Shown here: positions 173 through 32,671 of the stretch, piece by piece
Layout of the letters: the number at the start of each line of letters is the position of its first letter
Position numbering within the stretch: position 1 is the first letter of the stretch
NCBI GenBank assembly: GCA_964416445.1
Contig: CAYQEE010000002.1
Span: forward strand, 42,691 to 106,690
Length of the DNA: 64,000 nucleotides
Direction: 5' to 3'
DNA from: an uncultured Gammaproteobacteria bacterium
GTDB taxonomy: Bacteria; Patescibacteriota; Microgenomatia; Levybacterales; UBA12049
Notes under the pieces: generated by a model
Told to the model about the DNA's origin: nothing
Seen by the model: the letters and a program-made list of their open reading frames with translations, nothing else
The model's database searches: none
Program-made: the position numbers and the translations under genes

Positions 173-1093
173 ATGAAAAGAAATTTAATTATCGTTAGCT
201 TTGTTTTTATAATAACTCTATTATTTACCTCAAAAGTATACGCTCAACAGGTTTCACTAGGTATTTATCCACCTATTTTCCAAATAACCGTTAATCCTCC
301 TGAAAATATAAAAGTACCATTTACTATAAAAAATTATTCTGAAACTCCTGTTATTTTAGAAATTACTATTAAACCATTCAGACCTTCAAATAAAAATGAT
401 GGAGAAATTACCTATAATAATAAAGAACGTATTTTACAAACAGTACAAATTCTTCAAGATAATCATCCTATTGACCAAATAATTCTTGGGCCTCAAGAAG
501 AAAAAACTCTTTTATTAAATTTAGATATCTCCAAGGACGAACCAGAATTTGATCATTACTTCTCAGTTTTATTTATATCTAAAGATAACTTAAATAATCT
601 TAATACATCACAAATAACAACCGCAGGTATAGCAAGCAACGTTTTAGTTTCTATTGGAAAAAATTCTAAACCAGAAGGATTTTTATCCGAGTTCACTTCT
701 CCATTCTTATTAGCCAAAGGACCAGTACCTTTTCAAGTATTAGTGCAAAATACTGGAAAACATTATATTAAACCTAATGGATCAATTGTAATACGAAATA
801 TGTTTGGCCAAGTAGTTGGAAATATTAAATTATTACCTGTAAATATTCTTTCAAATTCAAGTAGGTACTTACCAGATTCAAGCTTGAGCTCAATAATATA
901 TGCAACCTGGCCTGAGAAGTTTATACTTGGCCCTTATACAGCAGAATTAACAATTGCTTTATCCCCAGACGGACCTTTATTTAAAAAAACTATTAACTTT
1001 ATTGGTCTACCTACTTCAATATTAATTAGTCTAATAATTACATGTTTATTACTGGCACTAATTGTATATCGAGTAAAAAGAAAACTTAAATAA
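173..1093 (+). CDS. Secreted or cell-surface protein with N-terminal signal peptide and C-terminal membrane anchor
   Basis: ORF track 306 aa. N-terminal signal (MKRNLIIVSFVFIITLLFTSKVYAQQ). C-terminus LPTS + hydrophobic helix + RVKRKLK, a tripartite sorting-signal-like tail. Confidence 0.55.
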   Translation: MKRNLIIVSFVFIITLLFTSKVYAQQVSLGIYPPIFQITVNPPENIKVPFTIKNYSETPVILEITIKPFRPSNKNDGEITYNNKERILQTVQILQDNHPIDQIILGPQEEKTLLLNLDISKDEPEFDHYFSVLFISKDNLNNLNTSQITTAGIASNVLVSIGKNSKPEGFLSEFTSPFLLAKGPVPFQVLVQNTGKHYIKPNGSIVIRNMFGQVVGNIKLLPVNILSNSSRYLPDSSLSSIIYATWPEKFILGPYTAELTIALSPDGPLFKKTINFIGLPTSILISLIITCLLLALIVYRVKRKLK

Positions 1094-2157
1094 CTGTCAA
1101 TTTCTATATTCGTCAAATAATAATATTTAAATCTAAAACATATACAAGCTATCTTAAAAATAGTAAACTTTAATGTAAATATCATTTATATTGTTAATAA
1201 CCGTTCAATGATTTATCAACAATAGTTTTATTTCTTCAGACAATAAGGGTCTAGTTTAGTATATTTTAATTAAATGAAAAATTATAACATAGCATTCTTC
1301 CAATTAGTCTACTAGCAGACAATCACCATGCTTTGCTTATACTATTTTCAATTGCCTATTAAAAAAATCATAATTTAAGCATTACCTGCATTAAATGTAA
1401 AAGTAGTGAATAATGGAGAATTTAGAAATTATAGGTAACTACTTTCCTTCACTTTAATATCAATGAAGCTGAATAAAAAAGAAAAAAATAAGATAATCCT
1501 ATTAAGTAAAATGTTAAATCAATATAAAAACTAATTGCTATCAATTTCGAGTTTAAATACTATAAACAATACTTTTTCAATTATCCTATTGGCCTTAGAG
1601 ACTTTTAGACTATCAAAACAGTCTAAATGCTAATTATAAAATGACTATCACTAGCAACAAAACGCTGCTAATTGACTAGCCTATACTCCTTTTCACAAAT
1701 AAAACTCTTTATTTTTTTCACAAGTAATTTTAATAGTTAATCTTTTTTCTTATCGTTTAATAAGTTACTTTTTTTCAAAAAAAGTAGTTTTCAAAATATT
1801 TTCTTACAAATGATTGACACATAATAAAGGACATAAATAACAAGATATTCACAAGATACATTTTGTACTATTTTGAATATTATCAATTGTATATTTTTTG
1901 CGTATGTTCGGGAATATGTACGTATTTTGTTTCTATTTTCACGGATAAAATCGTTCACGGCTTACCTTATAAATATATCAATAGGTATACAAAGATATCA
2001 TCTATTTGCAAAAACTTAAACTCTGGGATATTGACAAGAGGATGTATACTATTTACTCTTATTATTAGTAGTATGTATGAAATTAGTAAGTAAAATAAAA
2101 AGTATAATCCGTATAATGTGAGGCTAATTTCTATTTTCACAATTTTCATTACTTCTT

Positions 2158-5100
2158 ATGTCAATACTAGAATCATTTAAAAATTATTTATTTTCACAAA
2201 AGAATTCAGCTTCTCTACTTACCGTTAAAAACTATTTAGCAGATGTAAGAAAATTCATTCTATGGATCGAAAGAAAATATCAAGCTTCGTTTGACCCAAA
2301 AATCATAAATGCAGAGCTATTAAACGAATATAGGGAATATTTATCTAAAAAGTTTCTATCTTCATCTGTAGAAAGACAGTTCTCTGCATTACGAAAGTTC
2401 ATTCATTATTTAACGACTACTGGTCAATTAGTTGAAAATCCATTTGAACATATTGAACAAGTTGCCCAAGCATCGCAAGATTTATGGTATTTAAAATCAT
2501 TTAGGGCCTATCTATCAAACTACAACAATTCAAAACTAACTATAAAGAACTATATAATAGATATTAAACAATTTCTTTTATGGAGCCAGGATATATTTGG
2601 CATTACAGTTGGTGATCATAAAAAAGAATTAAACAAATTAATTACACTCGAGCTCATTGAAGATTATAAACAAAAATTATTAACTGAAAAAATATATTCG
2701 ACGTCATCGGTAAACCGTAAACTATCATCCTTACGTAAATATTTTCTATGGCTAAATCATGAGAATTTAATTAACAATAATATTTCTAGAGATAATATAA
2801 CTCAAACTAATTCTAATATAGGGTCTTCATTAAGAAAAGAATTTAATATTGAAGCTATCCTTGGAAATTCTTCAGAAAGCATTGTGGCTGAGAAGCTAGA
2901 AGATAAAGAACAACTTGTAGGCGTACAAACATATTCAAAGTTTCCCCCAATAAGATTATTACAAAAAACAGTTAAAATAATTAGTTACATACTCGATAAA
3001 TTTATTATCACTCCCATTGTTCAAGTAACAATTTTGAGCCTATTTTATTCTAAACTGGCTAAGAAGAGACCGGTTTTCTCAAAAACTACAAATATACTTG
3101 CAAATAATCACACAAATTCAACTTTTTATTCATATTCTCCTTCCCTATTAACAGAATCATCTAATGAAAAACTTCGCTTCAAAATAAGTAATTATTTTTT
3201 TAATATAGGATTATCAATATCTTATAAAATCAAAAGATATCAAAATAAGTTAATTTTTAAATATTTTAACTTTATTGCATTAACTATTTTATGCACAATA
3301 ACAATTGTATCACTCTATATTACATTTTTTCGCAATAGCACTGGTTCATTAGCAACAAATTTAGCTGCGCCACCCAGGGTCTTATCATTTCAAGGACGTC
3401 TCACTGACTCCTCAAATAATCCAATTACCGCAGCGACTGATCTGCGGTTCAGTATATATAATGATCCTTCAGCTTCAAGTGCACCAGGAGAAGGATCATT
3501 AATTTGGCAAGAAGCGGATTACAATGTAGTTCCTGATTCAAATGGAATTTTCACTGTGTTGCTTGGTAGAAACGAAACGATACCCCAAAGTATCTTTTTT
3601 CAAAACACTTCACTTTACTTAGGAGTATCTATTGCAAATACAAAGGAACTTAAACCTAGACAACAATTAGCTACAGTATCTTATGCTAAAAATACTGAAG
3701 AGCTCCAAGGTATGACAACTATCACTGATCCTTCAGTTTTAAACAATCAAAATGTCATTTTAGCACTAAATAGTAATGGAGTATTAAGCATTCCCGGTAA
3801 TTCGAATACAACGTTTCAGTCACCTAATGGAGAATTTACACTAACTGGAAAAACTTTAACGCTTAGTACTGCACCAGGTACAGATACAAATATTCAATTG
3901 GCACCAGATGGGATAGGAGTGATAGATATTCAAAAGCCAATAACGAATTCAACCCTAAATAGTAATATTAGATCAGCCGATGGATCATATACTTCAGCTG
4001 GTGCTGTTGAAATTGATAAGATGCTTGGTATTCTCGCTACATCTAGTGGTCAATCAGCATTTACGATTGATCAAGAAGGACTTGGACCGGTTATAAGTGC
4101 ATCTCATAGCGGTGTCGGTATCTTCACCGTTGATACCACTGGAAATGTATCTGCAACAGGAAATATAACAGGTAATACACTTTTTACAGGAAATGGCAGT
4201 TCCTACTATATTTCTGCTAGCACTTCAAACTTGAATGGCTTAACTCTTTCTGGTAACTTAAATCTCTTGGGAAATATTACATCTAATATTACTCCCTCTG
4301 CTAGTGGCGTTTATAACTTGGGCTCTCCTACTCAATATTTTGGTACGCTTTATGCTCAAAATATTATTACGAATGCTATTAGCGGACAAAATGGGTTTTG
4401 GGAAATTAACCAAGGAGTAATCAGTCCTAGTAATTCTTCTAATGATTTTACTATTGGTGGAAATGCTACCGGATCAGCATTTCAAGTTTTTGCAAATGCC
4501 ACTGATAATGGTCCTGCCGGAACAGCCTCAACAACAGGAAACCTCGTATTTGCAGGTAATTCCCCCACTATTCAAAGTATTTCCAATAATTCTCTAACTA
4601 TCGGGGGAACAACTACGGGTAATATTATTTTATCTCCTGGAAATGGTAGCGGTTCAGTAGCTCTTACAGGTAGTTCTTCATTTATGACCGGCACAGGACT
4701 AACAACAATTGGTGGCAACTTAGTAATAAATGGCGTTTCCAACGGACCGAGCACTCTAATTCATAATCCAAACACAAATTCTAATACAATGTATGAGATA
4801 CTCCAATTAACAACAAACAATCAAGGTGTTGGGGCAGGTGGATATATACAATTTAAGGATTTAACAAATACCGACATTGCCAAAATTGGATTTAGCGATA
4901 GCAGCAATAGCGGTGGATCTCTGGTTTTTTACACTAAACCTGCAAATGGAAATGCTTTAAGTCACTCAATTGAACAAGCTAGAATAGATCCAAATGGCAA
5001 CCTTGGGTTAGGAACTATTTCACCTCTTGCAACTTTAGATATTCGAGGGAATTCAAATACTTCTCCTATTGCTTCTTTATCAGGTACTACTAATTTTGCT

Positions 5101-8100
5101 GGTTTAGTAGTAGATCAATCGGGATCAGGAGATATTATTGCTGCTTCCCAGTCAGGGTTAGCTCGTTTTACTGTATCGAATAATGGAACTATTCAGGATA
5201 GTAAATATACAATCCCAGGAGGAATAGTATATAGTACTTCTACTGGATTACTACAACAAACCACATCAGGAAATATCGGCGACTGTCTAAAGTCAAATGG
5301 AACCGGAGTTCCATCGTGGGGACCATGTGGTAATTCAGCTTGGCAACTAAACGGAAATCTTATTTCTCCTACTAACTCCAATTATGATTTAACTATTGGA
5401 GGTAGTGCTACCGGATCAGCATTTCAAGTTTTTGCAAACGCTAGCAAGAATCAGCCAGCAGGTACTGTTTCAACATCTGGTAACTTGATTTTTTCAAGCA
5501 GTTCTCCAACTATTCAAACAACCTCAGATAACATGCTTACGATAGGAGGCAACACCACAGGAGATATTAATCTAATTCCTTCTCATGGAAATGGGAGTAT
5601 CATATTAGGGAGTGGAGAGTCTGGAACTCCAAGTGCAATAACACTGCGTGGTGCAAATGCCGCAGGTTCAAACATACTAGGTGCAAATACAATCTTCGCT
5701 GCTTCGAATGGTACGGGTATGGCTGGTTCTGGAGAATTGATTTTCGAAACCGCACCAGGAGGACCAGCTCTTGATAATACTAGCGTCTCCACAAGTAATT
5801 CAAATGCTACCACTCTTACCTGGAATCATCTGGTGGGTTCTGAAAACAATATGATATTAGTTGTAGGTGTTGCGATTAATAGTAATAGTATCTCAACAGC
5901 TACCTTAACCCTCGATAATTCGACAAACTTTACGAATATAGGTAGCATAACAGCTTCAGGTACACGAAGCGAACTTTGGTATATTAAAAACCCAGGTTCA
6001 GGTAACCATACAATTGCACTAAAATTAACTGGAGCTGCACACATTACTGCTGGTGGAGCCTCGTATTATAATGTCAATCTACAAAATCCTATAGGAATAC
6101 TTAGTTCTCAATCAGGCACTAGCTCTAATGCTTTAATTACCAACACTCCTACGAATACCAACCAAGTAATTATTGATATGGTATCAACTCCAAATATAGG
6201 AGGAAATCCTTCACTGAATCAAGTAACTCTCTTTAATTCAAGTAGTTATACCGAAGGAGGAATGTCAGCAACAATAGGATCTCAAGGAAACACGCCTACT
6301 AGCTGGTCCTTTATTACGGCTACTCCATGGGCATATACTGCAGTTCCGATAAATGGGATATCCTCCGGAACATCTGATGCCTTAGCACAAAGAATGACAA
6401 TTGACCAAAAAGGTAATGTAGGTATAGGTACAATAAGTGCAGCAAGAACGTTAGATGTTAACGGAACTTGGGGTGGAAATACAGAAATTCGAGTAGATAC
6501 TATAGGGAGTGATCAAACGATTCAAGATAATGTAAAAGCAGTTGCTTACGATTTTGAGAATAATCAAGGTTCAGTAGATAAAGATGCTCGAATTACCTAT
6601 AATATTTTAGGTCTTCCTTCTACTGATGGTACATTCGCTTTTATTCATCTTGTTGCTGAAAAAGATACTACGTTAGCAAATCACCAAGATTGTATTGATG
6701 TAGAAGTTCAGAGTCAACTCGTTGAATCTGCAACTACAAATTCTGGTTGTACGTTAAACACAACAGCTTCATCATCAGCAGTTAAAGATTTTATGTTAAT
6801 TCGAACTAATGGAAACTGGCATACAGCTTCAGGAGAATCTACAAATAACTTAGCTGATTTAGCAGAATACTTTGATACAACAGGTAAATTACCTCAAGCT
6901 GGTGAACTGGTAAGTAGTGTTGATAATACACATGTATCAGAAACGCAAAGTGCATATGATTCAAAAGTAATGGGAATTGTATCAACAAATCCTAATACTA
7001 CTTATGGTGCATACTCCACTAGTTCAATTCCTTTGGCTCTTACAGGTCGAATACCTGCGATCGTCACGTCGGTAAATGGGAATATTTCAAATGGTGACTT
7101 CATTGTATCCTCCCCTTTTCCCGGAATAGGAATGAAACCCTCAAAAGAGTCCTATTCTGTAGGAAAAGCGTTAGAATCATTTACACCGACAGCCCAGACA
7201 TGTACAACTATTACATCTCTTAATAACATTCCATGGCCTGCTGATGATGGACTCAATGTTTCTAAACCTTGTTTTCAATTAAAAGTATCCTCACTAGATT
7301 TAGCTATGCAAATGATTCTTGCAATAGATTATAATCTCCAACCGACTGATACTATTTATATAGGAAAAATAATGGCTTTAGCGAATCTTTCTAATTATAA
7401 CCCTCAGATTGAATTAACTAGTACAAATAATTTCACATTAATATCACAAAATGCATCAAACATAAGCAACTATATAATTAAAGATTTTTCAGGAAAACTA
7501 GTACAGCAAGTTGCTGTGCTAAGTAACGCACTTATAGGGAATCTTAAAGCAGGCGCAATCATTAGTGAAGAACTTACAACCAATAAACTTACTATAGCTG
7601 GCCAGAGTCTAAAAGACTATATACTTGCAGTAGTTAATCAAGCAGGATTAGGATCGAATGGCACTCAAGTGATTTCACCTACTCTTCAGACAGGTGAAGT
7701 TCATACAAATATTATTTCTCCTCTCGGATCTACATCGATAGGTATCAAACTAGACAAGAATAAGATTTCAATTACTAATAACGCAAGTAATTCTGCCGTT
7801 GCGGTAATAGATAACCAAGGTAATGCTAGTTTCTCAGGAAAATTAAACTCAAATAATCTTGCAGTAAATTCTGATGCAACGATATCTGGAACGTTATATG
7901 CGCACCGAATAAAGGCTGATCAGATTGATGGACTCGCTCAAAATCTGAGCACAATTTCTGCACAAAACATAACGAATATCACAAATATTTACTATGCCAC
8001 CCCTACTCCAACGGTCCAACAGACATCCAGTGAAAGCGGAGCAATTTCTCTTAGCAATATTACAAATTCACTGCCAGATTCTCATGAAAACTATGAAAAA

Positions 8101-8853
8101 TTAAGTTCCTACTCAGCCTTCCTCTCTTATGTACCAAAATTAGAGGCTCTTACAGCACAATTTGATCAGGGTCTTATGTCTTTTGGACCCACTTCACTAT
8201 CAGATACCTCGATTACCGGCCAATTAGCAATCGGTGGGCAAATGATACTGAATGATAACGGGATAAATGTTCTAGGAACAGAATTAGCATTACAGCCATT
8301 ACGACAGGGTGGGCTGTCTCTTGAAGGCGGACAAATTAAAATAGATACCGATGGTAATATAAGCGTTAATGGAAAAGCAATATTTTATAATACACTTGCT
8401 ACAAATATACTTTCACCTATAGGAGGAAATGACTTAACAATTAAACTTGGTTCCGATACAAATGTCACTTCACAAAGTTCTTTCAAAGTAGAAAATGCAT
8501 CAAGTTCAGCAATATTTGGAATTAATCAACTTGGAGATATTTTCGCTTCAGGAGCTGCAAATATTAATAAACTGAATTTTAATGTTGTGGCACCTGCACT
8601 TGCAGTATCTGAAAACGAGGTAATTGCAACAAGTTCGGCTGGCACATCAAATATTTCGCCAAATCAACAACAAGTAACAATAGATGATTCTCTAGTTACA
8701 CAAAATTCTTTAATTTATATAACTCCAGTTGGAACCGTAAGCGCTATTGATGCACCATATTTACTGAGACAAGTTCCTCAAAAATCATTTAGTGTAGGAA
8801 TTTCACAACCTGTAGATGTTCCTATCCAATTTAATTGGCTTATTGTTAACTAA
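2158..8853 (+). CDS. Giant (2231 aa) membrane-anchored surface protein: two N-terminal integrase-type core-binding (SAM-like) domains, TM helices, ~1800-aa Ser/Thr/Asn/Gly-rich repetitive ectodomain
   Basis: Residues ~1-95 and ~100-195 match the XerC/XerD N-terminal core-binding-domain pattern (…LTVKNYLADVRKFILW…RQFSALRKFIHYL…G…NPF and …LTIKNYIIDIKQFLLW…RKLSSLRKYFLWL). No R..K..HxxR..Y catalytic domain follows. Hydrophobic helices near aa 275-300 and 365-390. The remainder is low-complexity S/T/N/G-rich with internal repeats. Confidence 0.7.
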   Translation: MSILESFKNYLFSQKNSASLLTVKNYLADVRKFILWIERKYQASFDPKIINAELLNEYREYLSKKFLSSSVERQFSALRKFIHYLTTTGQLVENPFEHIEQVAQASQDLWYLKSFRAYLSNYNNSKLTIKNYIIDIKQFLLWSQDIFGITVGDHKKELNKLITLELIEDYKQKLLTEKIYSTSSVNRKLSSLRKYFLWLNHENLINNNISRDNITQTNSNIGSSLRKEFNIEAILGNSSESIVAEKLEDKEQLVGVQTYSKFPPIRLLQKTVKIISYILDKFIITPIVQVTILSLFYSKLAKKRPVFSKTTNILANNHTNSTFYSYSPSLLTESSNEKLRFKISNYFFNIGLSISYKIKRYQNKLIFKYFNFIALTILCTITIVSLYITFFRNSTGSLATNLAAPPRVLSFQGRLTDSSNNPITAATDLRFSIYNDPSASSAPGEGSLIWQEADYNVVPDSNGIFTVLLGRNETIPQSIFFQNTSLYLGVSIANTKELKPRQQLATVSYAKNTEELQGMTTITDPSVLNNQNVILALNSNGVLSIPGNSNTTFQSPNGEFTLTGKTLTLSTAPGTDTNIQLAPDGIGVIDIQKPITNSTLNSNIRSADGSYTSAGAVEIDKMLGILATSSGQSAFTIDQEGLGPVISASHSGVGIFTVDTTGNVSATGNITGNTLFTGNGSSYYISASTSNLNGLTLSGNLNLLGNITSNITPSASGVYNLGSPTQYFGTLYAQNIITNAISGQNGFWEINQGVISPSNSSNDFTIGGNATGSAFQVFANATDNGPAGTASTTGNLVFAGNSPTIQSISNNSLTIGGTTTGNIILSPGNGSGSVALTGSSSFMTGTGLTTIGGNLVINGVSNGPSTLIHNPNTNSNTMYEILQLTTNNQGVGAGGYIQFKDLTNTDIAKIGFSDSSNSGGSLVFYTKPANGNALSHSIEQARIDPNGNLGLGTISPLATLDIRGNSNTSPIASLSGTTNFAGLVVDQSGSGDIIAASQSGLARFTVSNNGTIQDSKYTIPGGIVYSTSTGLLQQTTSGNIGDCLKSNGTGVPSWGPCGNSAWQLNGNLISPTNSNYDLTIGGSATGSAFQVFANASKNQPAGTVSTSGNLIFSSSSPTIQTTSDNMLTIGGNTTGDINLIPSHGNGSIILGSGESGTPSAITLRGANAAGSNILGANTIFAASNGTGMAGSGELIFETAPGGPALDNTSVSTSNSNATTLTWNHLVGSENNMILVVGVAINSNSISTATLTLDNSTNFTNIGSITASGTRSELWYIKNPGSGNHTIALKLTGAAHITAGGASYYNVNLQNPIGILSSQSGTSSNALITNTPTNTNQVIIDMVSTPNIGGNPSLNQVTLFNSSSYTEGGMSATIGSQGNTPTSWSFITATPWAYTAVPINGISSGTSDALAQRMTIDQKGNVGIGTISAARTLDVNGTWGGNTEIRVDTIGSDQTIQDNVKAVAYDFENNQGSVDKDARITYNILGLPSTDGTFAFIHLVAEKDTTLANHQDCIDVEVQSQLVESATTNSGCTLNTTASSSAVKDFMLIRTNGNWHTASGESTNNLADLAEYFDTTGKLPQAGELVSSVDNTHVSETQSAYDSKVMGIVSTNPNTTYGAYSTSSIPLALTGRIPAIVTSVNGNISNGDFIVSSPFPGIGMKPSKESYSVGKALESFTPTAQTCTTITSLNNIPWPADDGLNVSKPCFQLKVSSLDLAMQMILAIDYNLQPTDTIYIGKIMALANLSNYNPQIELTSTNNFTLISQNASNISNYIIKDFSGKLVQQVAVLSNALIGNLKAGAIISEELTTNKLTIAGQSLKDYILAVVNQAGLGSNGTQVISPTLQTGEVHTNIISPLGSTSIGIKLDKNKISITNNASNSAVAVIDNQGNASFSGKLNSNNLAVNSDATISGTLYAHRIKADQIDGLAQNLSTISAQNITNITNIYYATPTPTVQQTSSESGAISLSNITNSLPDSHENYEKLSSYSAFLSYVPKLEALTAQFDQGLMSFGPTSLSDTSITGQLAIGGQMILNDNGINVLGTELALQPLRQGGLSLEGGQIKIDTDGNISVNGKAIFYNTLATNILSPIGGNDLTIKLGSDTNVTSQSSFKVENASSSAIFGINQLGDIFASGAANINKLNFNVVAPALAVSENEVIATSSAGTSNISPNQQQVTIDDSLVTQNSLIYITPVGTVSAIDAPYLLRQVPQKSFSVGISQPVDVPIQFNWLIVN
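4399..5630 (+). repeat. Intragenic duplicated module (~290 bp, two copies ~942 bp apart) inside the giant surface-protein gene
   Basis: Near-identical stretches at ~4399-4690 and ~5341-5630 (e.g. accggatcagcatttcaagtttttgcaaa at 4470 and 5411). Protein: …ISPSNSSNDFTIGGNATGSAFQVFANATDNGPAGTASTTGNLVF… vs …ISPTNSNYDLTIGGSATGSAFQVFANASKNQPAGTVSTSGNLIF…. Confidence 0.8.
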
Positions 8854-8907: not shown

Positions 8908-10995
8908 ATGCAAGATAAAAAAGTGCGTTACTCTGTTACTTCAAGTAACATATTAAATTTTATCTGGGGCTTTTTCTTTATTATATTCCCTATATTCTTT
9001 CTTACATTTACAACTGAAAATTTTGTTTTACCAAAACAAATAATTGTAGGATTAATAGCTTTAGTTTCATTATTAGTTGTGGGGATAAGAACAGTATTAG
9101 ATAAAAAACTAATTTTTCGAGAATCATTTTTGGATTTACCAGTTTTCCTTTTTATACTCTCATTACTTTTATCGACTCTTTTTTCAGTAGATCGAATTAA
9201 CAGCATAATCACCTTTATTCCTGTTTTGTTTCTAGCAATTAGTTATTTCGTAATAACAAATACGGTAAGAACAGAACAAATCGCATTCTATTTCGTCTCA
9301 GCAATACTGTTAAGTGGATGTATCATAGCATTATTAGCAATCTTTACCTTTTTGAAAGCTTATATCATTCCTTTCGGATTCACTCATGTACAGTCATTTT
9401 CTCCTTTAGGAAGTCTTCTAGACCAAGCAATCTACTTAGCAGCATTAATTCCCATCACTCTTTACTTTTCGTATCCTATGCTTAAGGGCAAAAATGATGG
9501 AAGAGTATTAAGCTTTGGAATTATTTCCCTAATTTTACTTGCAGGTTTTGGAATTAGTGTTTATCAATTATTTACCTCCCAAAAACCAATAATTTTGCCT
9601 TTTACCACAGGATTCCAAATTGCATTTGCAGCAATTTCTCAAGATAGTCCAAGAATTGCACAGGGCTTCTTTCTTGGAAGTGGATTTGGTACATTCTTTA
9701 CAGCGTTTACTCGATTTAAGCAGCCTGCTTTCAATATTTATCAAAATCTCTGGTTTCTTAATTTCACCCAGTCAACGACTTTTCTCCTTGAATTACTCAC
9801 AACAACAGGATTATTAGGTGTATTATCATTCCTATTTATTCTTGCAAGAGCATTAACAAAACCATTTAAAACTATTGATAATCCTCTCTTCTTTTCGATC
9901 GTTATACTAGGAATTACCGCATTTGTTTTCCCTTATTCTTTTACTATCCTTGCGTTATTATTCTTTTTATTAGCAATATTCTCAGCAGCTGAAGGCATGA
10001 AAAATCCAGAGAAGTCATTTGATCTCGAGTTATCCCTAATTGCACTAAAAAAAAATCTATTCAACATTCATTCAGAACAACATGGTTCACACAAACCAAG
10101 TCAAGCATTACCAATAACGTTTTTAATATTAGTACTCATAGTTACAGGTTTAATTGGATTCTTTTCTGTAAAATATGTCATTGCAGACATCCTTTTTGAT
10201 CAATCATTAGTAGCAGCTGCAAACAACAATGGTTCAATAACTTATCAAAAACAAGTTGATGCAATTACCATGTTTCCCTACAATGATGGTTTTTACCGAA
10301 TATTTTCACAAACAAACTTATCTATAGCAAATTCATTACTCGCATTAAACGCAAGTCATCAATCCTCAAATTCTCAGAATCAATCAACGGCTCTAAATCT
10401 CATTCAACAATCAATTAATGTAGCTCGAACAGCTACAACATTGTCGCCTATGGACACATTAAATTGGCAGAATCTAGCTTCAGTCTACCGTAGTTTAATT
10501 AATTTTGGTCAAAATGCTGATCAGTTTGCAATTGCAACAACACAACAAGCAATTGTGTTAGACTCAGCTAATCCCCAAGAATACCTGACACTAGGAGGAA
10601 TTTATTACCAACTTGGTCAATATGATAATGCAATAAGACAATTCCAAATTGCTGTAAATCTTAAGCCAGATTATCCAAATGCCTATTACAATTTGGGACA
10701 TGCATATGAAGCCAAGGGAGATTTACAAAACGCCCTCAGTAATTATCAAGCCGTTAGGACATTAATCCAAAGTGATAAAACTAATCTTGCTAAAATAAAT
10801 AGTGAAATTGATGCATTGAATTCGAAAATAAATAGTAATACGAGTCAATCTCAAACAAATACCAAGCCAACAACTGAAGTTACACCATCAGCAACTCCTC
10901 AACAATTAAACTTAAATCAATCAACAACACAACTTCCAAAACAAACAAACCAAATTAAGTTACCTCCTCCAACGGCAACTAATTCAGCAAAATAA
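8908..10995 (+). CDS. Polytopic membrane protein, O-antigen ligase (Wzy_C)-like, with C-terminal TPR repeats
   Basis: 695 aa. About 10-12 predicted TM helices in the first 430 aa. C-terminal TPR units (…YLTLGGIYYQLGQYDNAIRQFQIAVNLKPDYPNAYYNLGHAYEAKGDLQNALSNYQ…). This architecture is typical of Wzy_C/O-antigen-ligase family proteins. The family call is from architecture only. Confidence 0.4.
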   Translation: MQDKKVRYSVTSSNILNFIWGFFFIIFPIFFLTFTTENFVLPKQIIVGLIALVSLLVVGIRTVLDKKLIFRESFLDLPVFLFILSLLLSTLFSVDRINSIITFIPVLFLAISYFVITNTVRTEQIAFYFVSAILLSGCIIALLAIFTFLKAYIIPFGFTHVQSFSPLGSLLDQAIYLAALIPITLYFSYPMLKGKNDGRVLSFGIISLILLAGFGISVYQLFTSQKPIILPFTTGFQIAFAAISQDSPRIAQGFFLGSGFGTFFTAFTRFKQPAFNIYQNLWFLNFTQSTTFLLELLTTTGLLGVLSFLFILARALTKPFKTIDNPLFFSIVILGITAFVFPYSFTILALLFFLLAIFSAAEGMKNPEKSFDLELSLIALKKNLFNIHSEQHGSHKPSQALPITFLILVLIVTGLIGFFSVKYVIADILFDQSLVAAANNNGSITYQKQVDAITMFPYNDGFYRIFSQTNLSIANSLLALNASHQSSNSQNQSTALNLIQQSINVARTATTLSPMDTLNWQNLASVYRSLINFGQNADQFAIATTQQAIVLDSANPQEYLTLGGIYYQLGQYDNAIRQFQIAVNLKPDYPNAYYNLGHAYEAKGDLQNALSNYQAVRTLIQSDKTNLAKINSEIDALNSKINSNTSQSQTNTKPTTEVTPSATPQQLNLNQSTTQLPKQTNQIKLPPPTATNSAK

Positions 10996-12771: not shown

Positions 12772-12905
12772 TACTAGTCACCTCCTCTTGAATCTTATTT
12801 TCCAATTGTATACCTTTGCTGGCTTTCCAGAGAAGGTGAACCTTGGACAATTCGTTTGGATAAGTATAGGGTAAAAGGCCTAAAATAGCAAATGCGACTT
12901 TTGAG

Positions 12906-12976
12906 TGGACCCGAGGGGAATCGAACCCCTTACTCTTCCATGCCATGGAAGCATGTTACCGGTATACCACGGGCCC
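12906..12976 (-). tRNA. tRNA-Ala (anticodon GGC)
   Basis: Minus-strand sequence GGGCCCGTGGTATACCGGTAACATGCTTCCATGGCATGGAAGAGTAAGGGGTTCGATTCCCCTCGGGTCCA folds as a cloverleaf. Anticodon loop AUGGCAU gives GGC. Acceptor G3:U70 is the Ala identity pair. The T-loop is GGTTCGATTCC. CCA is not encoded. Confidence 0.85.
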
Positions 12977-12993
12977 AGAAATAACTAATTCAG

Positions 12994-13066
12994 TGGACCT
13001 GAGCGGATTCGAACCGCTGATCTCCACAATGCGAATGTGGCGCATTACCAACTGTGCTACAGGCCC
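12994..13066 (-). tRNA. tRNA-Ala (anticodon CGC)
   Basis: Minus-strand sequence GGGCCTGTAGCACAGTTGGTAATGCGCCACATTCGCATTGTGGAGATCAGCGGTTCGAATCCGCTCAGGTCCA. Anticodon loop UUCGCAU gives CGC. G3:U70 is present. Confidence 0.85.
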
Positions 13067-23403: not shown

Positions 23404-23421
23404 TTTTTGTACTTAAGTTCT

Positions 23422-23535
23422 CCGGCCTTGACCCATTGTCCCGATGAGCTAGGCTCACAAGTATCGTAGGCGCTGAAGTGTTTCACTTCTCTGTTCGGAA
23501 TGGGAAGAGGTGGTGCCACTTCGCTCCAAAGACCG
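23422..23535 (-). rRNA. rrf: 5S ribosomal RNA
   Basis: The minus strand reads CGGTCTTTGGAGCGAAGTGGCACCACCTCTTCCCATTCCGAACAGAGAAGTGAAAC…GGGTCAAGGCCG. It contains the universal CCGAAC…GAAGTGAAAC motif. The 5'/3' ends pair as helix I (7 bp). Confidence 0.85.
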
Positions 23536-23599
23536 AAAGACTTCAGTACAAAAACAATTACAAAGAGTTGAAGCTCTCTGAAAAGTAAAGAGAAGAAGA

Positions 23600-26880
<3,281 letters not shown>

Positions 26881-27002
26881 AAATGTTAATATGCATTAAC
26901 ACTAAAAAGACCTTCTTCTCCTCACTTGTCAAAGAGCTTCTCTCATTATCATCTAAGGTAAACCCCCTCTTTCTAGGGGGCTTGCCCTAGATGATACTTA
27001 AG

Positions 27003-27075
27003 TGGACCGGAAGAGATTCGAACTCTCGACCTTCGCGATGCAAACGCGACGCTCTACCAGCTAAGCTACCGGCCC
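27003..27075 (-). tRNA. tRNA-Ala (anticodon UGC), at the 5' side of the 23S gene
   Basis: Minus-strand sequence GGGCCGGTAGCTTAGCTGGTAGAGCGTCGCGTTTGCATCGCGAAGGTCGAGAGTTCGAATCTCTTCCGGTCC. Anticodon loop UUUGCAU gives UGC. G3:U70 is present. Confidence 0.85.
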
Positions 27076-27307: not shown

Positions 27308-30300
27308 ATGATTGAATTAGATCAAGCTCCCGCACCAAAACCACTAGCAAAACCAGCAAAAGTTAAAGTAAAACCAATATCCGAAAGAGTAACTACAAGC
27401 GCTCGTGATACATTAGAGAAAATGTTTGGATTGGCTCCATTACTCCCCGCGCCGACGAAAACTCCTGATAAAAAAAACAAAAAACCACCTGAGGTGGATA
27501 TTACTCGCCAACCTACACAAAAATTGCCAAGTATAGATATCGAAGACCAACCGACTCAAATCTTACCACGTATAGATATGACCCGCCAACCTACACAAAA
27601 ATTGCCGAGTATAGATATTGAAGACCAACCGACTCAAATCTTACCACGAATTGAGCTATCTCTCCCTCATACTAATGAAGCTCCTGTACAGTTTGATTAT
27701 CCCCCCCTGCCACCAATGGAACCGCATCATCCCGAGAATGAACCTATTCAGCAAGAAGAACGTTTTCCAAATATGGATAATGAATACATGCAAAAGGCAC
27801 AGCAATATCTAGAGCCTGTTATGTTAGCACCAGCTTTAGAATCTACCTTTCAGTATCTTTCAGAAACAAGAGACCTTGATTTTGATTTTAACTCTGAACG
27901 ATATAAACAAATCCATGAAATTACAGATAAAATGAGCGAAGGATTTTTGTTTAAACCCAGAGTGGTTATTATGCGAAAAGGCAACGATGCATTCATTGGA
28001 TCTGATGGCACTATATTTCTTGCTCAAGGATTAATAAATAAACTTGATACGTTAGACGAAGTTGGAGCAGTTTTAGCTCATGAAATTAATCACCTTATTC
28101 ATATGGATGTTTGGCGTACTAACTCAAATAATGCACGACTATTAGATTATGAGGCCGTCGGTTGGTTACAAGAATTTGCAGCCGATATTGGAACAATGAA
28201 ACTCTTGGAAAAAGCTGGTCTTTCATCAGATGCATTTCGGACTGCAATTATGAAACTCGATTCAACAAAAGGTTTTACGCACCAAAGTGGTGGCATGCGT
28301 GCATTAGAAGTACAATTAGGACATGAAATTTGGAATTATGACACGAGTGATCAACCGCAACAACCAATGCCTGAGACATGGAAACAGCAAAGCAGGCTAA
28401 CAAACCTCGAAATTATAAATAATGGGAAACATAAGAGAGATTATGGTTACTACCCTGACGGAAAAAATCCAGAGGTATTTGCCGCATTAGCAAAGTTACA
28501 TAGAGTAGATTTAGAAAAACTTTACTCGCAAGATAATCGTCTTGATTATAACTTTGGGGAAAGTGTCATAAGATTTTTGTCTGAACGATTACGCACATAT
28601 GGATATACCGAAAGTCAAATCCTCACTTACTTTAGTTCATCATTAAAAGATGTAAATTTTGCAATTATAAAGGAGCCAGAACAGGCGGTTGACGTATTTG
28701 ATCATTTACATGAATATATTAACGATAAAACAAATGAAAAAATAGAAAACGACCTTTTTGGAATAAAACCGAACAAATGGCGTGAGGCAACAACATTTCC
28801 ACTTGCTAGCCTTCTTTATAAGCTTATGAAAAATATAAAAGTTGGGAATTCTTGGCACTCAGAAGAATTGCCAGTTACCGAAGATAGTTTTATTCATATC
28901 CTCCAAAAAATCTCAGAATTTGAAAAACTTAGTTTTGGTATTACTGCTGAAACGTATATTACAAAAGCAGTTCTTGAATTTATAGATTCCGAATTCTCTC
29001 ATGGCTGGTGGGAGAATGGAAAGGAAGTTAATTTACCAAAGACAAAAGCGTTTTTATACAAATTAAAGGCTGCTCATATTCCCATAAAAACAGAGCAAGT
29101 AATTAGCAACTATCAACTTGATTATGGTCTCTTAGCACGACATCATTTTAGAGATACTGATTATCTGAATATCATTGATTTTTTGGAAACAGAGTATGAA
29201 GGAAAACCTCGGACAAGTATTGAAGAGAAAATTGATACATTTTTCCAAGATATGTCTCGTGGACCAAAATCTCAAGAGGATATCAATAAACAAGGAGCTC
29301 AAGTAAAGGATTTTTTGTTGCGACTTAAGTTTGATTTTAATCGGGAAGAGATTCCTGAACATATCCGAATTACGTATATAACAGATATTTTAACTCGAAT
29401 TAATGGATCAAATTATGCAGTATCTGATAATATGGTAAAGTATTTAAAAAATAACTTTCCATCGGTTATCAGTTCTGGCTTAACTCCACCAGAATTGCTT
29501 TATCATAATCAGACACAAAATGGCGATACATTTATTATTTCACCTGATATGCAGGAAGATCTTATCACTTTATTAAAACCGGAGAATCTTGAACGATATA
29601 ATCAAAAGATTCAAGCAAATATACAAAAAATGATTAAATTTAACTTACAATTAATGACCATTAAAAGTCTCTTTAAAGAGGATTCACAAGGATACTACGA
29701 CACAATAGTCAAAATAATGAACGAAAGTGGTATTAACAGTAACAATATAGCTTTCTCTGAACTAATGCATTTATCCAGCCCACTTTTTAAGAATGATAAA
29801 TATTTTAACAATTATCAATTATTATTATCGGGTGGAAGTTTCGATAAAAGTGTTGCCTCAGTAGACTGTAATAACTATGATCTTCTAACACAACTACCAT
29901 TTATAAAAGACCTCATCGATAGAAATAAAGAAATTTCCGTAAATTCTATGGACGAACTCTATAATTATACAAATAATCTTACTATGTCTTTAGAAGGTAT
30001 ACCCGGTTTTCGAAGGGAATTATTTTCAGATTCTCTAACTACGTTAATTATCACAAAACCAATTCAAGAGGCATACTTACGATTACTAAAGCAAGGGATT
30101 CCTGAGAATCAACTCTCTGCACAATATAAATTTATTCGTGATTATTTTCCTGAAGACCCCGGTAAAAAGGGCTTTTTAAAAGAATACAATTTAAAAATCC
30201 TTTCATCCCCTAGCCTTTCACTCCAACATAAAATAAATCATTTACGTGAGAATATTCGATACATTGGACCTGAAGGACTTATTATTCTTGGTGAACAAAT

Positions 30301-32671
30301 ACAAACTATTGAAGAATACCGCCAATTTCGATACGCAATGGGTGAAGAAATTAAAAAATATTTATCTCCTTCTTCACTTTTAACACAAATAGCAGCAGCA
30401 GACTATTTATCAATGTATTTTAACCGGGGATTTGACTTGATCGCCTCTTGTGATTCGTCAGATGAAGCAAAAGTTCGCGAATCAACAAAGTTAGCCGAAG
30501 AATGGGTAACAAATTTCTTTACCCGTGTGTACTATTCTTCAGAACATCTTGAATATTTACATCGAGAAACAACAAAAGTTGAGTATGACCCTGTTAGTGG
30601 AAAAATCGTCCTTGATGATATAAGAAAAAAAGTATTCCGCTCATATCATGATCTTCTTAATATTTTACATGATTTAACACCTTCACAACGTTTTGCAATC
30701 GCGAGCAAATTACTTGTGGAGGAACCACATGGAGCACTCGTTACTTCGGAAAATAGATCTAAACTAGCAACCTATTTGAATGATGCTTTGCAAGCAAAAG
30801 GATTTATGAAGATTGCTCTCGAACAGGCAATTATTAATGGCGATCAAACACTTCTCGCTTTACCTGCTGCTGCAATGATTGGTCCATTACTATTTACTGG
30901 CTATGATGAACAAGCAATTAATTATTCAAAAGTCATGCAGACTGAAGTTGAAGATCCAACTCCAGAACAATATGCAAAAATCCCTTTTAGTAATCTTATT
31001 CCGAATCAAAGAATTCCCTCACTTATGCAATCAACTACTCAAGATATCGTCTTCTTTGGTAGAGAATATAAAAATTATCCACAATCAGTCGTTTACCAAT
31101 TGGCTGAAGGATCTCGAGAACGATATTACGAAATTTATGCATATCTTGAAAAACAAACACGAAATTTAGCAGGAAAACCAGAAACCCCTGAAAAACAAAC
31201 AGCGAGTTATAAAGGTGTCGAAGCAGTAATTAGTGGGATCCAAAAAGCGAGTGCATTAGGCGTACGGGCACTTCAATTAACAAGTCAATTTTTTCATTTC
31301 TCCTCTCCAGAATTAAACAAGCGACTCGCTGAAAGTTTTGATAATAATCCTGGTATGAATAAACTTGTTTTTTGGGAAAACTTATATAAGATGGCAGAAG
31401 ATGGTAAAACGAATCCAAAATATAAATTTTATGAAGACTTTGTCTGGACAGACCATAACGAACCTACGAAAGAAGGAGAATATAAACTGGTAAGTATTGG
31501 AGACGCACTTGGACAAGGAAGCTTATTTACTACTCGAGCAGCAAAAATAGTAGACCGGAATGGAAATATTAAAGACGTTGCTCTCAAGCAATTAAATCCG
31601 AATGCAGTGAAACATATCGAGGATTATTATAAATTAGGTATGAATACACTTGAACAAGTTATACTCCATGGTACTCCCGAAGAAGTTTATTATGCAAATA
31701 TGGCAAAAATGATTCTCGATTTATCCCAAAATTGGTGTTTAAAAGATATTAATGATAAAGATTTTGATAAAAATGATGAATTATTTAGAAGTGCAATCAT
31801 AGCTGTTTATAACCAACAAGAAGGAAATAATGCCGTTTTTGCTCCTGTTGTATACTTCAATCAATTTAATATGCAATGTGAAGAACTTGTTAGTAATGGA
31901 GTAACATTAAATAAATTTTTGCATAGCAATAAACCAGCTGCAGAAATCAAAAAAACAATTAATCAAGTTGTTAACTTCTATCAGTTTCAAATGCATGCAA
32001 AACCTGCTATGCAAATTGAAGGAAAGGATCATTACATTGTTCATTCAGATCCAAATATTGGAAATTTCATAGTAGGAAGAGATGACAATGCTGTAGCCGT
32101 TTTGGATAGAAGAATGTATCTTATTTTAAATGATACTCAGATGAACGTGGGAAGAAAAGTCCTCGAAGGTGCTTCACGAGAAGAACTATTTCAAGCTTTT
32201 ATTGAAGCAGTTTGTGAAGATAATAATATTCGAACTCCTGAAGAGAAACTAATAATTTCACGAAATGTATTATATTCCGTGGGAAATCATTTGGGATTAT
32301 CTGCAGCAACTTTAAAACGAGAAGAATCTTTTTCTGAAAAACTATCATTATTCGGTAGTTCGCTTCGTTCCATGCCAAAAGGTATACGTTCTCTTTCCGG
32401 AGCGATGAAACAACTCAATGAAACAGCATCTGATGAAACAGAACCAAATAAAGTTCAACGAGCATTGAGATTACAAAGAGAGCTAAATAAACTAAAAATT
32501 CTAGGAAAAAGAATAAGTAGAAAAAGTGTCAAATCTCTTGATTCAATGGAATTTCTCCAAATCGCTGTCGAAAAATTATCTCAACAACAAATACATGTCT
32601 CATTAAATACCCAGCTTGCTGTGAGAAATGCGTCTGCTATGAGAGAATTGCAACAAAGATATGCTGCGTAG
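27308..32671 (+). CDS. Giant (1787 aa) mosaic protein: low-complexity repeat N-terminus, M48-like zinc-metalloprotease motif region, C-terminal ABC1/UbiB-like atypical kinase domain
   Basis: …VVIMRKGNDAFIGSDGTIFLAQGLINKLDTLDEVGAVLAHEINHLIHMD…QEFAADIGTMKLL has the M48 HExxH + ExxAD pattern. C-terminal …SIGDALGQGSLFTTRAAKIVDRNGNIKDVALKQLNP… matches a Gly-rich loop/VAxK. …HSDPNIGNFIVGRDDNAVAVLDRRMY matches the ABC1 motif HADPHPGNxxV…DfG. No signal peptide or TM helix seen. Confidence 0.6.
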   Translation: MIELDQAPAPKPLAKPAKVKVKPISERVTTSARDTLEKMFGLAPLLPAPTKTPDKKNKKPPEVDITRQPTQKLPSIDIEDQPTQILPRIDMTRQPTQKLPSIDIEDQPTQILPRIELSLPHTNEAPVQFDYPPLPPMEPHHPENEPIQQEERFPNMDNEYMQKAQQYLEPVMLAPALESTFQYLSETRDLDFDFNSERYKQIHEITDKMSEGFLFKPRVVIMRKGNDAFIGSDGTIFLAQGLINKLDTLDEVGAVLAHEINHLIHMDVWRTNSNNARLLDYEAVGWLQEFAADIGTMKLLEKAGLSSDAFRTAIMKLDSTKGFTHQSGGMRALEVQLGHEIWNYDTSDQPQQPMPETWKQQSRLTNLEIINNGKHKRDYGYYPDGKNPEVFAALAKLHRVDLEKLYSQDNRLDYNFGESVIRFLSERLRTYGYTESQILTYFSSSLKDVNFAIIKEPEQAVDVFDHLHEYINDKTNEKIENDLFGIKPNKWREATTFPLASLLYKLMKNIKVGNSWHSEELPVTEDSFIHILQKISEFEKLSFGITAETYITKAVLEFIDSEFSHGWWENGKEVNLPKTKAFLYKLKAAHIPIKTEQVISNYQLDYGLLARHHFRDTDYLNIIDFLETEYEGKPRTSIEEKIDTFFQDMSRGPKSQEDINKQGAQVKDFLLRLKFDFNREEIPEHIRITYITDILTRINGSNYAVSDNMVKYLKNNFPSVISSGLTPPELLYHNQTQNGDTFIISPDMQEDLITLLKPENLERYNQKIQANIQKMIKFNLQLMTIKSLFKEDSQGYYDTIVKIMNESGINSNNIAFSELMHLSSPLFKNDKYFNNYQLLLSGGSFDKSVASVDCNNYDLLTQLPFIKDLIDRNKEISVNSMDELYNYTNNLTMSLEGIPGFRRELFSDSLTTLIITKPIQEAYLRLLKQGIPENQLSAQYKFIRDYFPEDPGKKGFLKEYNLKILSSPSLSLQHKINHLRENIRYIGPEGLIILGEQIQTIEEYRQFRYAMGEEIKKYLSPSSLLTQIAAADYLSMYFNRGFDLIASCDSSDEAKVRESTKLAEEWVTNFFTRVYYSSEHLEYLHRETTKVEYDPVSGKIVLDDIRKKVFRSYHDLLNILHDLTPSQRFAIASKLLVEEPHGALVTSENRSKLATYLNDALQAKGFMKIALEQAIINGDQTLLALPAAAMIGPLLFTGYDEQAINYSKVMQTEVEDPTPEQYAKIPFSNLIPNQRIPSLMQSTTQDIVFFGREYKNYPQSVVYQLAEGSRERYYEIYAYLEKQTRNLAGKPETPEKQTASYKGVEAVISGIQKASALGVRALQLTSQFFHFSSPELNKRLAESFDNNPGMNKLVFWENLYKMAEDGKTNPKYKFYEDFVWTDHNEPTKEGEYKLVSIGDALGQGSLFTTRAAKIVDRNGNIKDVALKQLNPNAVKHIEDYYKLGMNTLEQVILHGTPEEVYYANMAKMILDLSQNWCLKDINDKDFDKNDELFRSAIIAVYNQQEGNNAVFAPVVYFNQFNMQCEELVSNGVTLNKFLHSNKPAAEIKKTINQVVNFYQFQMHAKPAMQIEGKDHYIVHSDPNIGNFIVGRDDNAVAVLDRRMYLILNDTQMNVGRKVLEGASREELFQAFIEAVCEDNNIRTPEEKLIISRNVLYSVGNHLGLSAATLKREESFSEKLSLFGSSLRSMPKGIRSLSGAMKQLNETASDETEPNKVQRALRLQRELNKLKILGKRISRKSVKSLDSMEFLQIAVEKLSQQQIHVSLNTQLAVRNASAMRELQQRYAA
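27506..27661 (+). repeat. 78-bp perfect-to-near-perfect tandem duplication (2 copies) in the 5' part of the 1787-aa gene
   Basis: cgccaacctacacaaaaattgcc[a/g]agtatagatat[c/t]gaagaccaaccgactcaaatcttaccacg appears twice in tandem. It encodes TRQPTQKLPSIDIEDQPTQILPRI ×2. Confidence 0.85.

Follow-up and report, generated by a model that had tools for sequence, protein, structure and literature searches.

A tandem pair of Xer-type core-binding domains at the N terminus of a giant, fibre-like membrane protein of Levybacteria

A 64,000-nucleotide stretch of an assembly deposited as an uncultured Gammaproteobacteria bacterium (GCA_964416445.1, contig CAYQEE010000002.1, positions 42,691 to 106,690 of the forward strand; hereafter the window, numbered from its first letter) encodes a 2231-residue membrane protein that has a tandem pair of tyrosine-recombinase core-binding (CB) domains as its tail inside the cell and a giant fibre outside it, and that is not a recombinase. 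The initial annotation, made from the letters of the window, had proposed the two domains and the giant surface part. Three observations are new beyond it: an ectodomain of the phage-fibre/autoprocessing kind, the restriction of the family to one lineage and a gene-specific triple repeat upstream. It would be, as far as we know, the first instance of a tyrosine recombinase whose sequence-reading half, parted from its enzyme half, was domesticated to form a surface structure's cytoplasmic tail. Coordinates of all features are collected in Table 1.

The gene is a single open reading frame (ORF) of 2231 codons without interruption. Phage_int_SAM_1 (PF02899) of Pfam matched the protein twice, at residues 4–97 and 112–203. 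When the two halves were scanned apart, they scored 35.0 and 37.2 bits (E 1.7e-8 and 3.6e-9), both above the gathering score of 22.3 bits, and the profile check of the N terminus that the initial annotation had set beforehand was thus significant for each of its two proposed domains. XerC and XerD were the best profile matches of the CB region (E 1e-17 to 1e-19), and with the NCBIfam XerC/XerD equivalog models only positions 2–99 of 295 aligned, at 62 bits against a cut-off of 335 bits. CB1 and CB2 are 35% identical to each other (E 1e-14) and so are a tandem duplication. In both, the residues of the Xer signature (T-x-K-N-Y-x-x-D-x-x-x-F-x-x-W and R-x-x-S-x-L-R-K-[FY]) are invariant or close to it, and the NRKLSSLRKY helix of CB2 is invariant (alignment A1). 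The domains are basic throughout the family (mean pI 9.3 for CB1 and 9.4 for CB2, net charge ~+4.7 each), against a pI of 4.5 for the ectodomain.

Residues 1–461 were modelled as a monomer with AlphaFold2 (AF2), using 20 family sequences. The predicted local distance difference test score (pLDDT) was >90 for CB1 and ~85 for CB2, and the predicted fold is XerD-like, in line with the structure prediction that had been proposed as a check. The top Foldseek matches in the PDB were all recombinase CB domains (XerD 1a0p, Brujita Int, XerA, IntI and the CB domain of lambda Int), with XerD 1a0p as the best (root-mean-square deviation 2.1 Å over 98 columns). Their E-values were weak, since all 461 modelled residues, disordered parts included, had served as the query; the probabilities were ~1. 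Single-sequence searches of the PDB with the CB pair, the first ectodomain and the G2 region gave nothing useful, and family profiles alone worked. The four-helix CB fold and its signature residues are held in common with XerC, XerD, XerH and XerA. Unlike in these recombinases, the CB domain of the window protein is duplicated in tandem, tethered to the membrane, devoid of a catalytic domain and followed by ~1840 extracellular residues.

No catalytic-domain family, PF00589 included, was matched by the window protein in Pfam even at E<=1, and PF00589 was absent from the precomputed domains of the 120 homologues listed. The catalytic domain being absent, as the initial annotation had remarked, the protein is no recombinase and recombination is impossible. 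These 120 homologues (1293–3903 residues, all with CB families) were listed by a whole-protein search that returned 226 proteins at E<=1e-5. When one genome per GTDB species was scanned, 162 loci were confirmed, and hence at least 162 species-representative genomes contain the architecture; the search of genomes suggested at the outset was therefore productive. Nearly all informative titles among the 162 loci are Levybacteria or Levyibacteriota, and the many contigs titled 'uncultured Gammaproteobacteria' are of the same kind, the title being a placeholder. With a profile confined to the family-specific linker and transmembrane (TM) region, 414 cluster representatives were matched at E<=1e-3; the number fell to 251 at E<=1e-10 and to 145 at E<=1e-30. 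In essentially all full-length members this region begins at residue ~235–300, so that exactly two CB domains fit ahead of it. The family is conserved across one lineage of ultra-small bacteria, the Levybacteria (Patescibacteria).

Homologues from Patescibacteria/Levybacteria metagenome-assembled genomes are named 'site-specific integrase' or 'XerD' by the NCBI and JGI pipelines, and such names would speak for a true integrase, or for an artefactual fusion in the window. The same continuous architecture is found, however, not only in the species-representative genomes, at least 162 of them, but also in 97 independent metagenome contigs, the ORF of the window is uninterrupted, no remnant of a catalytic domain exists among the 120 homologues listed and no relative of the family was found in 2.9 million viral contigs. 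An artefact or a true integrase therefore has hardly any probability left. In particular, a fusion present in so many species is no frameshift or assembly join, and the 5′ recombinase gene joined by error that the initial annotation had considered was not found. The database name 'site-specific integrase' is wrong. Hundreds of Patescibacteria entries under this name or 'XerD' are misnamed in the same way, which would inflate counts of mobile-element genes. The architecture itself was called undescribed, which is borne out as far as the literature can be searched, no account of it having turned up in full texts.

A phage or prophage origin was also considered and rejected, given the lack of a viral-contig relative and the chromosomal neighbours (Rho, an M23/LysM peptidase and rRNA). 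Matches in phage databases were limited to a weak one to an integrase CB domain, in one Bacillus phage under two accessions. In three loci (L051, L069 and L071) the family ORF ends early, at 357–677 residues and well inside the contig; long-read frameshifts or pseudogenes are possible. Fusion of a CB-type domain to something functionally unrelated is seen again in chain 14 of PDB 9i5v, a 401-residue P. gingivalis 'RaiA' with a CB-like N terminus (E 1e-9 to the family profile). As a guide to CB function this chain was uninformative, the ribosome model covering just 34 of its residues.

Topology was assessed over 93 homologues. One hydrophobic helix is conserved throughout, at residues 372–390 of the window protein (Kyte–Doolittle hydropathy 2.27, family mean 1.99). 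On average, the 30 residues ahead of it contain 6.4 K+R and 0.3 D+E and the 30 residues beyond it 3.2 and 1.5, for a net charge of +6 ahead versus +1.7 beyond; the ~75-residue stretch ahead of the helix is 18% K+R and 4% D+E. No N-terminal signal peptide was found in the window protein. By the positive-inside rule over these homologues, an N-in, single-pass, C-out topology is supported, with the CB pair and ~370 residues predicted to be cytoplasmic and ~1840 residues outside. The cytoplasmic location of the CB pair thus stands as first described, whereas the several TM helices of that description come down to one. A second TM helix at 274–292, probably counted in that description, would have left the CB pair or the fibre on the wrong side of the membrane; it was rejected for the family, since its stretch was TM-like (Kyte–Doolittle at least 1.6) in only 32% of homologues and reached 2.0 in 5%. 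The stretch lies inside a long helix (263–302, pLDDT ~80 in AF2) and is probably not membrane-spanning. Between the CB pair and the membrane, the family keeps a YSxxPPxRLxQK motif, with little or no variation in its Y, S, R and Q/K, and most members have a basic-aromatic juxtamembrane motif, N[IL]PKxxYAPLxISTxxFPxxKKxxHHLRYTRPxWYKxYHSY. Of the three functions first suggested for the CB pair, DNA uptake is the least probable, given the cytoplasmic position of the pair.

A cytoplasmic N-terminal domain of DNA-binding type, one N-in TM helix and an extracytoplasmic part are also the layout of ToxR, CadC and TcpP, which bind promoter DNA while in the membrane. Those proteins have an OmpR-type winged helix and small periplasmic sensors, whereas the window protein has a CB pair, for which operator binding is hypothetical. 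No OmpR-type winged helix was matched in its N terminus, where the Phage_int_SAM families alone match in Pfam and NCBIfam. The window protein is not a member of the ToxR family; by analogy, it may work like the ToxR/CadC class.

The ectodomain is giant and rich in S, T, G and N (12.6, 10.9, 10.2 and 10.2%), as the initial annotation had it. Family members range from ~1300 to 6048 residues, the ends being conserved and the middle variable. A membrane-proximal, beta-rich domain was found in every homologue inspected, with F411, G413, L415, D417, R430 and Y434 invariant (alignment A1). The window protein has the motif DLAEYF at residues 1567–1572 (nt 6856), and homologues match at the same position either Peptidase_G2 (27–30 bits, above threshold) or Peptidase_S74 (E 1e-11 to 1e-16). 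Among 110 full-length members, 48 have the G2-type motif D[LF]AE[YW], 17 the S74-type motif SDxRLK and 2 both, at a median distance of 603 residues from the C terminus. The family C-terminal profile matched the auto-chaperone of phi29 gp12 (3gqh, E 1.1e-4) and chaperone domain D4 of the tailspike Dpo31 (E 2.3e-4), and the D[LF]AEY of the family aligns with residue 1 of the phi29 gp12 cleavage product. From the homology of the chaperone domain and the alignment of its motif at the gp12 cleavage site we infer that the ectodomain is trimeric and self-cleaved just ahead of D1567.

The C-terminal region is 30–46% identical across ~650 residues in 53 loci (tblastn), with invariant residues in alignment A3, and about 550 residues beyond the chaperone domain are conserved. 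In an AF2 model of residues 1537–2231, residues 2147–2231 form a beta-sandwich, the last 85 residues having a pLDDT of 75–90. With this model Foldseek gave weak matches to the C-terminal domains of tailspikes and depolymerases, to the tips of tailspikes and to a Bdellovibrio fibre, Bd2439; all had E>1e-3 and were taken as hints only. A weak Pfam match to K1-lyase_C was also found in this module.

In phi29 gp12, the K1F endosialidase and T5 pb1, a G2 or S74 domain, like the one predicted here, comes after a long beta-rich shaft. The phage fibre chain ends with this domain, whereas here the conserved module of about 550 residues follows it. The MAT fibres of Bdellovibrio have a conserved beta domain proximal to the anchor, a shaft and an S74 or alternative tip (PMC10769870), a plan matched by the window ectodomain with its conserved beta domain near the anchor and its variable distal parts. 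By these likenesses the ectodomain resembles a phage tail fibre, and it appears to belong with phage fibres and the MAT fibres of Bdellovibrio. Phage and MAT fibres attach by a virion-binding N terminus or a cleaved signal peptide; here a TM helix with a cytoplasmic tail of DNA-binding type takes that place. To our knowledge, how bacteria in the Candidate Phyla Radiation (CPR)/Patescibacteria recognise and attach to their hosts is largely unknown. A lineage-wide fibre akin to the host-recognition fibres of phages and Bdellovibrio is a concrete candidate for such attachment.

The region upstream of the gene was examined across the family. In an unbiased 9-mer count, GTATAATCT was present in 45/76 upstream regions, against at most 13 in shuffles. 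The family element reads [D]ATAAT-NN-GTATAAT-CN-GTATAAT, then YTYGWRGCTAA. In the window its units are AAATAAAAA (degenerate), GTATAATCC and GTATAATGT, then GAGGCTAA, and the whole 35-bp element is AAATAAAAAGTATAATCCGTATAATGTGAGGCTAA (consensus GATAATCCGTATAATCCGTATAATCTCGAGGCTAA). Three repeat units were found in 148/159 unique loci, and the parts that the anchoring pattern left free, namely the ATAAT of the first unit, the G ahead of each unit and the GCT of the tail, are 89–99% conserved.

With hardly an exception, the triple repeat belongs to this gene alone. Within 1.39 Mb of loci, 77/98 occurrences of TATAATnnnTATAAT are <200 bp upstream of the family gene, and most of the remaining ones sit farther upstream of it. 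When the whole metagenome collection was scanned with ATAATNNGTATAATNNGTATAATYTYG, 108 stretches matched, and in 97 of them the N terminus of a CB-fibre protein lies directly downstream on the same strand, on which ground a regulon-wide motif was rejected. The other 11 stretches are contig ends (two with a gene start), one chimera, one insertion of a small ORF and four unrelated repeats. The window contains one exact copy of the element, versus 0.17 expected by chance. Some single cases were noted along the way. A two-mismatch copy of the repeat pair (ATATAATCCGTATAGT) at 40456–40471 (−), inside the third giant ORF of the window, is probably due to chance. In locus L088 (contig Ga0209514_10000010), the small ORF between the repeat element and the giant gene encodes a four-helix bundle of a type known in 23S rRNA intervening sequences. 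Locus L178 is a chimeric contig, in which a Levybacteria leader is joined to GC-rich foreign DNA.

A TTGACA hexamer lies 60–87 nt upstream of the last TATAAT in 146/156 unique loci bearing the repeat element, with a TATTCT-like −10 hexamer ~18 nt beyond it. From this placement, the repeats would lie at roughly +10 to +50 of the transcript. The octamer TGTATACT was found at the same place, between the −35 and −10 regions, in loci including L004, L005, L008, L010, L011, L063 and L065. TTTCAC, which is contained in TTTTCACA, was present in 74/156 unique loci; its offset from the last TATAAT varied, with peaks at −30, +25 and +49. Scanning the 1-kb upstream gap for consensus promoters told nothing, with 10 sites found versus 10.1 expected. 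The gap itself (1094–2157) is ~1.06 kb long and AT-rich, with about 27% GC and without a credible ORF, and across loci only its last ~140 bp, with the promoter block and the repeats, are conserved. A structured RNA or known RNA family was considered for the leader element and rejected: there was no Rfam match at E<=1 and no stable fold (z-score 0.44), and RNAalifold on 26 leaders gave zero pairs. Conserved in primary sequence without RNA structure, the element resembles a protein-binding site.

The reading that we prefer is a membrane-anchored, probably trimeric fibre whose basic CB pair binds DNA, most plausibly the repeats in its own leader, and feeds back on expression. Taken whole, with the secure architecture included, this reading has a little less than an even chance of being right. 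The ectodomain would fold as a homotrimer, as fibres with such chaperone domains do, and, cut just ahead of D1567, would serve as a surface or host-contact fibre. The CB pair would keep its Xer job, the base-specific reading of ~5 bp per domain. In the XerH–difH complex the N-terminal domain supplies most of the base-specific contacts, which fall on each arm's inner 5 bp (PMC5241119), so that by analogy a CB domain is plausible as a stand-alone reader of ~5 bp. Across loci, no conserved cytoplasmic DNA-binding protein or recombinase was found near the gene; since the triple 9-bp GTATAAT repeat is moreover exclusive to the gene and free of RNA structure, it is the likeliest candidate target of the CB pair. 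The CB pairs of membrane-inserted fibres would then bind the gene that encodes them, and its expression would be under feedback. Nine base pairs span ~31 Å, roughly the size of one CB domain, and the linker between CB1 and CB2 is short in the AF2 model. The unit GTATAA differs by one base from GCATAA, the inner XerC arm of E. coli dif. The 28-mer taken here as E. coli dif is single-copy in 5130/5426 E. coli genomes.

A DNA-reading tail together with a cis-element exclusive to its own gene would make a simple, testable model of surface-to-DNA coupling. The specific form of this model, a device that wires a trimeric phage-derived fibre to a particular DNA site through recognition of the three leader repeats by the CB domains, is doubtful. 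If it is true, the cell would count its surface fibres, or sense their state, at the level of transcription, and the protein would be a bacterial counterpart of MYRF-like membrane-tethered transcription factors, made from a domesticated Xer core-binding domain.

Several points count against the preferred reading. The window protein itself scores 14.9 bits with Pfam Peptidase_G2, below the 25-bit cut-off, so that the G2/S74 chaperone domain, predicted for the family, is borderline for this member. The AF2 model of residues 1537–2231 is poor overall (pLDDT 45.6), and trimer formation and self-cleavage of the ectodomain are predictions from domain homology. The window protein has also largely lost the basic-aromatic juxtamembrane motif (residues ~315–370, window 3100–3270), and for this reason it ranks low against the family linker profile (E 5e-32). 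On the DNA side, the likeness to the inner arm of dif is a 5/6 match of an AT-rich hexamer and could be chance. TATAAT is also the sigma-70 −10 consensus, and the repeats could therefore have nothing to do with the CB pair and serve as promoter or pause signals. Without a catalytic domain to complete the C-clamp, DNA binding by an isolated CB domain is generally weak. The reach from membrane to chromosome constrains the geometry, although ToxR and CadC manage it.

The CB pair could instead have given up DNA binding and be a repurposed protein–protein module, by which the fibre base is docked to some partner in the cytoplasm (a component of the cytoskeleton, the divisome or a secretion system, for example), with the repeat as an unrelated expression signal. 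RodZ is a precedent for a DNA-binding fold as the cytoplasmic anchor of a bitopic membrane protein. Like the window protein it has this fold at a cytoplasmic N terminus, and its helix-turn-helix binds MreB, not DNA; it differs in having no fibre and no sequence relation to the window protein. The further conserved cytoplasmic region, with the YSxxPPxRLxQK motif and its helix and the juxtamembrane motif, suggests additional partners, and poor DNA binding by CB domains that have no catalytic partner would also agree with a docking role. Both CB domains, however, stay strongly basic and keep the canonical Xer signature residues family-wide, no cytoplasmic partner gene is conserved in the locus, and a gene-exclusive cis-element beside a gene for DNA-reading domains would be a coincidence. 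A docking module, whichever of these partners it might have, is for us rather unlikely.

It is also conceivable, and in our estimate quite unlikely, that the CB pair binds the chromosome elsewhere, non-specifically or at dif-like sites, and forms a tether of the nucleoid or terminus at the base of the fibre, as the initial annotation had suggested first. Such a tether would have a role in segregation or polarity, the cell being very small, and the leader repeats would be bound by something else or be promoter or pause elements. CB domains are basic and are the sequence-reading part of Xer proteins, and genes for strongly expressed surface proteins often have elaborate promoters and leaders, all of which a tether would accommodate; but no dif-like site was identified here, and a tether leaves the strict one-gene distribution of the repeat without a protein-linked explanation.

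MYRF (myelin regulatory factor), a eukaryotic membrane-bound transcription factor of type II topology, has in common with the window protein a cytoplasmic N-terminal module of DNA-binding type and, as predicted for the window protein, a phage-derived, trimerising, self-cleaving domain; in MYRF this is the phage-tailspike ICA (S74) domain, and trimerisation imparts DNA binding (PMC3742443, PMC8094900). The likeness, with the 50-residue disordered linker, would suit a transcription factor that is tethered to the membrane and can be released, as in the MYRF, Notch or anti-sigma type, in which host contact or tension leads to proteolysis in the cytoplasmic linker or in the membrane and so frees the CB pair. 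The DNA-binding domains are unrelated, however (Ndt80-like in MYRF, CB here), and the chaperone domain of the window protein is extracellular, part of a giant ectodomain and far from the membrane. With the order of domains different from that of MYRF, cleavage would have another consequence: the putative self-cleaving domain (~1542–1746) lies outside, about 1150 residues beyond the TM helix, and a cut there therefore cannot release the CB pair. Neither a site-2 protease nor any other enzyme for such release is conserved in the locus. Release of the CB pair by proteolysis is accordingly considered very unlikely.

Two genes accompany the CB-fibre gene. A homologue of the 306-residue surface protein encoded upstream, which has a weak Pfam match to WxLIP_PGBD (E 0.018), was found upstream on the same strand in 67/82 loci. 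In locus L001 the upstream cluster (700–6553) consists of two such surface proteins and two secreted proteins ending in ...YTATPSF and ...YIATPTF, and it resembles a WxL-type surface-complex locus. In 32 or more loci the 695-residue TPR protein is encoded immediately downstream, on the same strand, the number being a lower bound set by the length of the flanks. It has about 10–12 hydrophobic helices by eye; its membrane part matched no Pfam, NCBIfam or PDB family, and its TPR part alone gave matches. This protein might modify or assemble the fibre. No other ORF with a CB domain was found in the window or in the 82 loci.

Table 1. Positions of the CB-fibre gene, the parts of its product, its leader elements and its syntenic neighbours in the 64,000-nt window
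Feature	Position	Strand	Description or basis
Syntenic upstream gene, 306-aa surface protein	173..1093	+	signal peptide, C-terminal TM anchor
Conserved promoter-proximal block ACTCTGGG (family consensus ACTCTAGG), then −35 TTGACA at 2031–2036	2020..2036	+	
TGTATACT, repeat-like unit between −35 and −10 regions	2043..2050	+	subset of loci
Triple-repeat leader element: three 9-bp-phased units, then GAGGCTAA tail	2093..2127	+	candidate operator
TTTTCACA motif in leader	2134..2141	+	
Whole gene	2158..8853	+	2231-aa type II membrane protein: CB–CB, linker, TM, giant fibre
CB1, Xer-type core-binding (SAM-like) domain, residues 4–97	2167..2448	+	Pfam PF02899, AF2, Foldseek
CB2, second core-binding domain, residues 112–203	2491..2766	+	Pfam PF02899, 35% identity to CB1
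Variable cytoplasmic linker, predicted disordered, residues 208–257	2779..2928	+	pLDDT <50; unconserved and length-variable in alignment
YSxxPPxRLxQK motif and long helix, residues 259–302	2932..3063	+	alignment, AF2
Single conserved transmembrane helix (signal anchor), residues 372–390	3271..3327	+	hydrophobicity, charge statistics
Membrane-proximal beta-rich ectodomain, PPRVLSFQGRLTD to NTEELQG, residues 405–521	3370..3720	+	invariant residues
S/T/N/G-rich fibre shaft, length-variable, residues 522–1541	3721..6780	+	family lengths, composition
Putative Peptidase_G2-type intramolecular-chaperone/autoprocessing domain, residues ~1542–1746	6781..7395	+	Pfam homologues, family profile
Conserved C-terminal module, residues 1747–2231, FNWLIVN terminus	7396..8850	+	tblastn, alignment, AF2
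Syntenic downstream gene, 695-aa polytopic membrane protein, C-terminal TPR repeats	8908..10995	+	

The window contains two other giant ORFs, and no paralogy of the CB-fibre protein with either was found. The ORF at 27308–32671 (+) encodes 1787 residues with an HtpX/M48-like peptidase segment near residues 196–295, and the ORF at 39079–43887 (−) encodes 1602 residues without a family match. Between them, the adjacent ORFs at 32683–34605 (−) and 34620–36152 (−), of 640 and 510 residues, are paralogues of each other (33% identity over 218 residues, E 2e-39). The 23S rRNA gene at 23420–27075 (−) spans 3276 nt against the 2925 positions of the model and so probably contains an insertion. The 5S gene adjoins it, a tRNA-Ala(TGC) gene lies just upstream and the next gene is the giant ORF on the + strand; with no 16S gene after the 23S and 5S genes, the 16S gene appears to be unlinked. 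Tandem tRNA-Ala genes with GGC and CGC anticodons are located at 12905–13066 (−).

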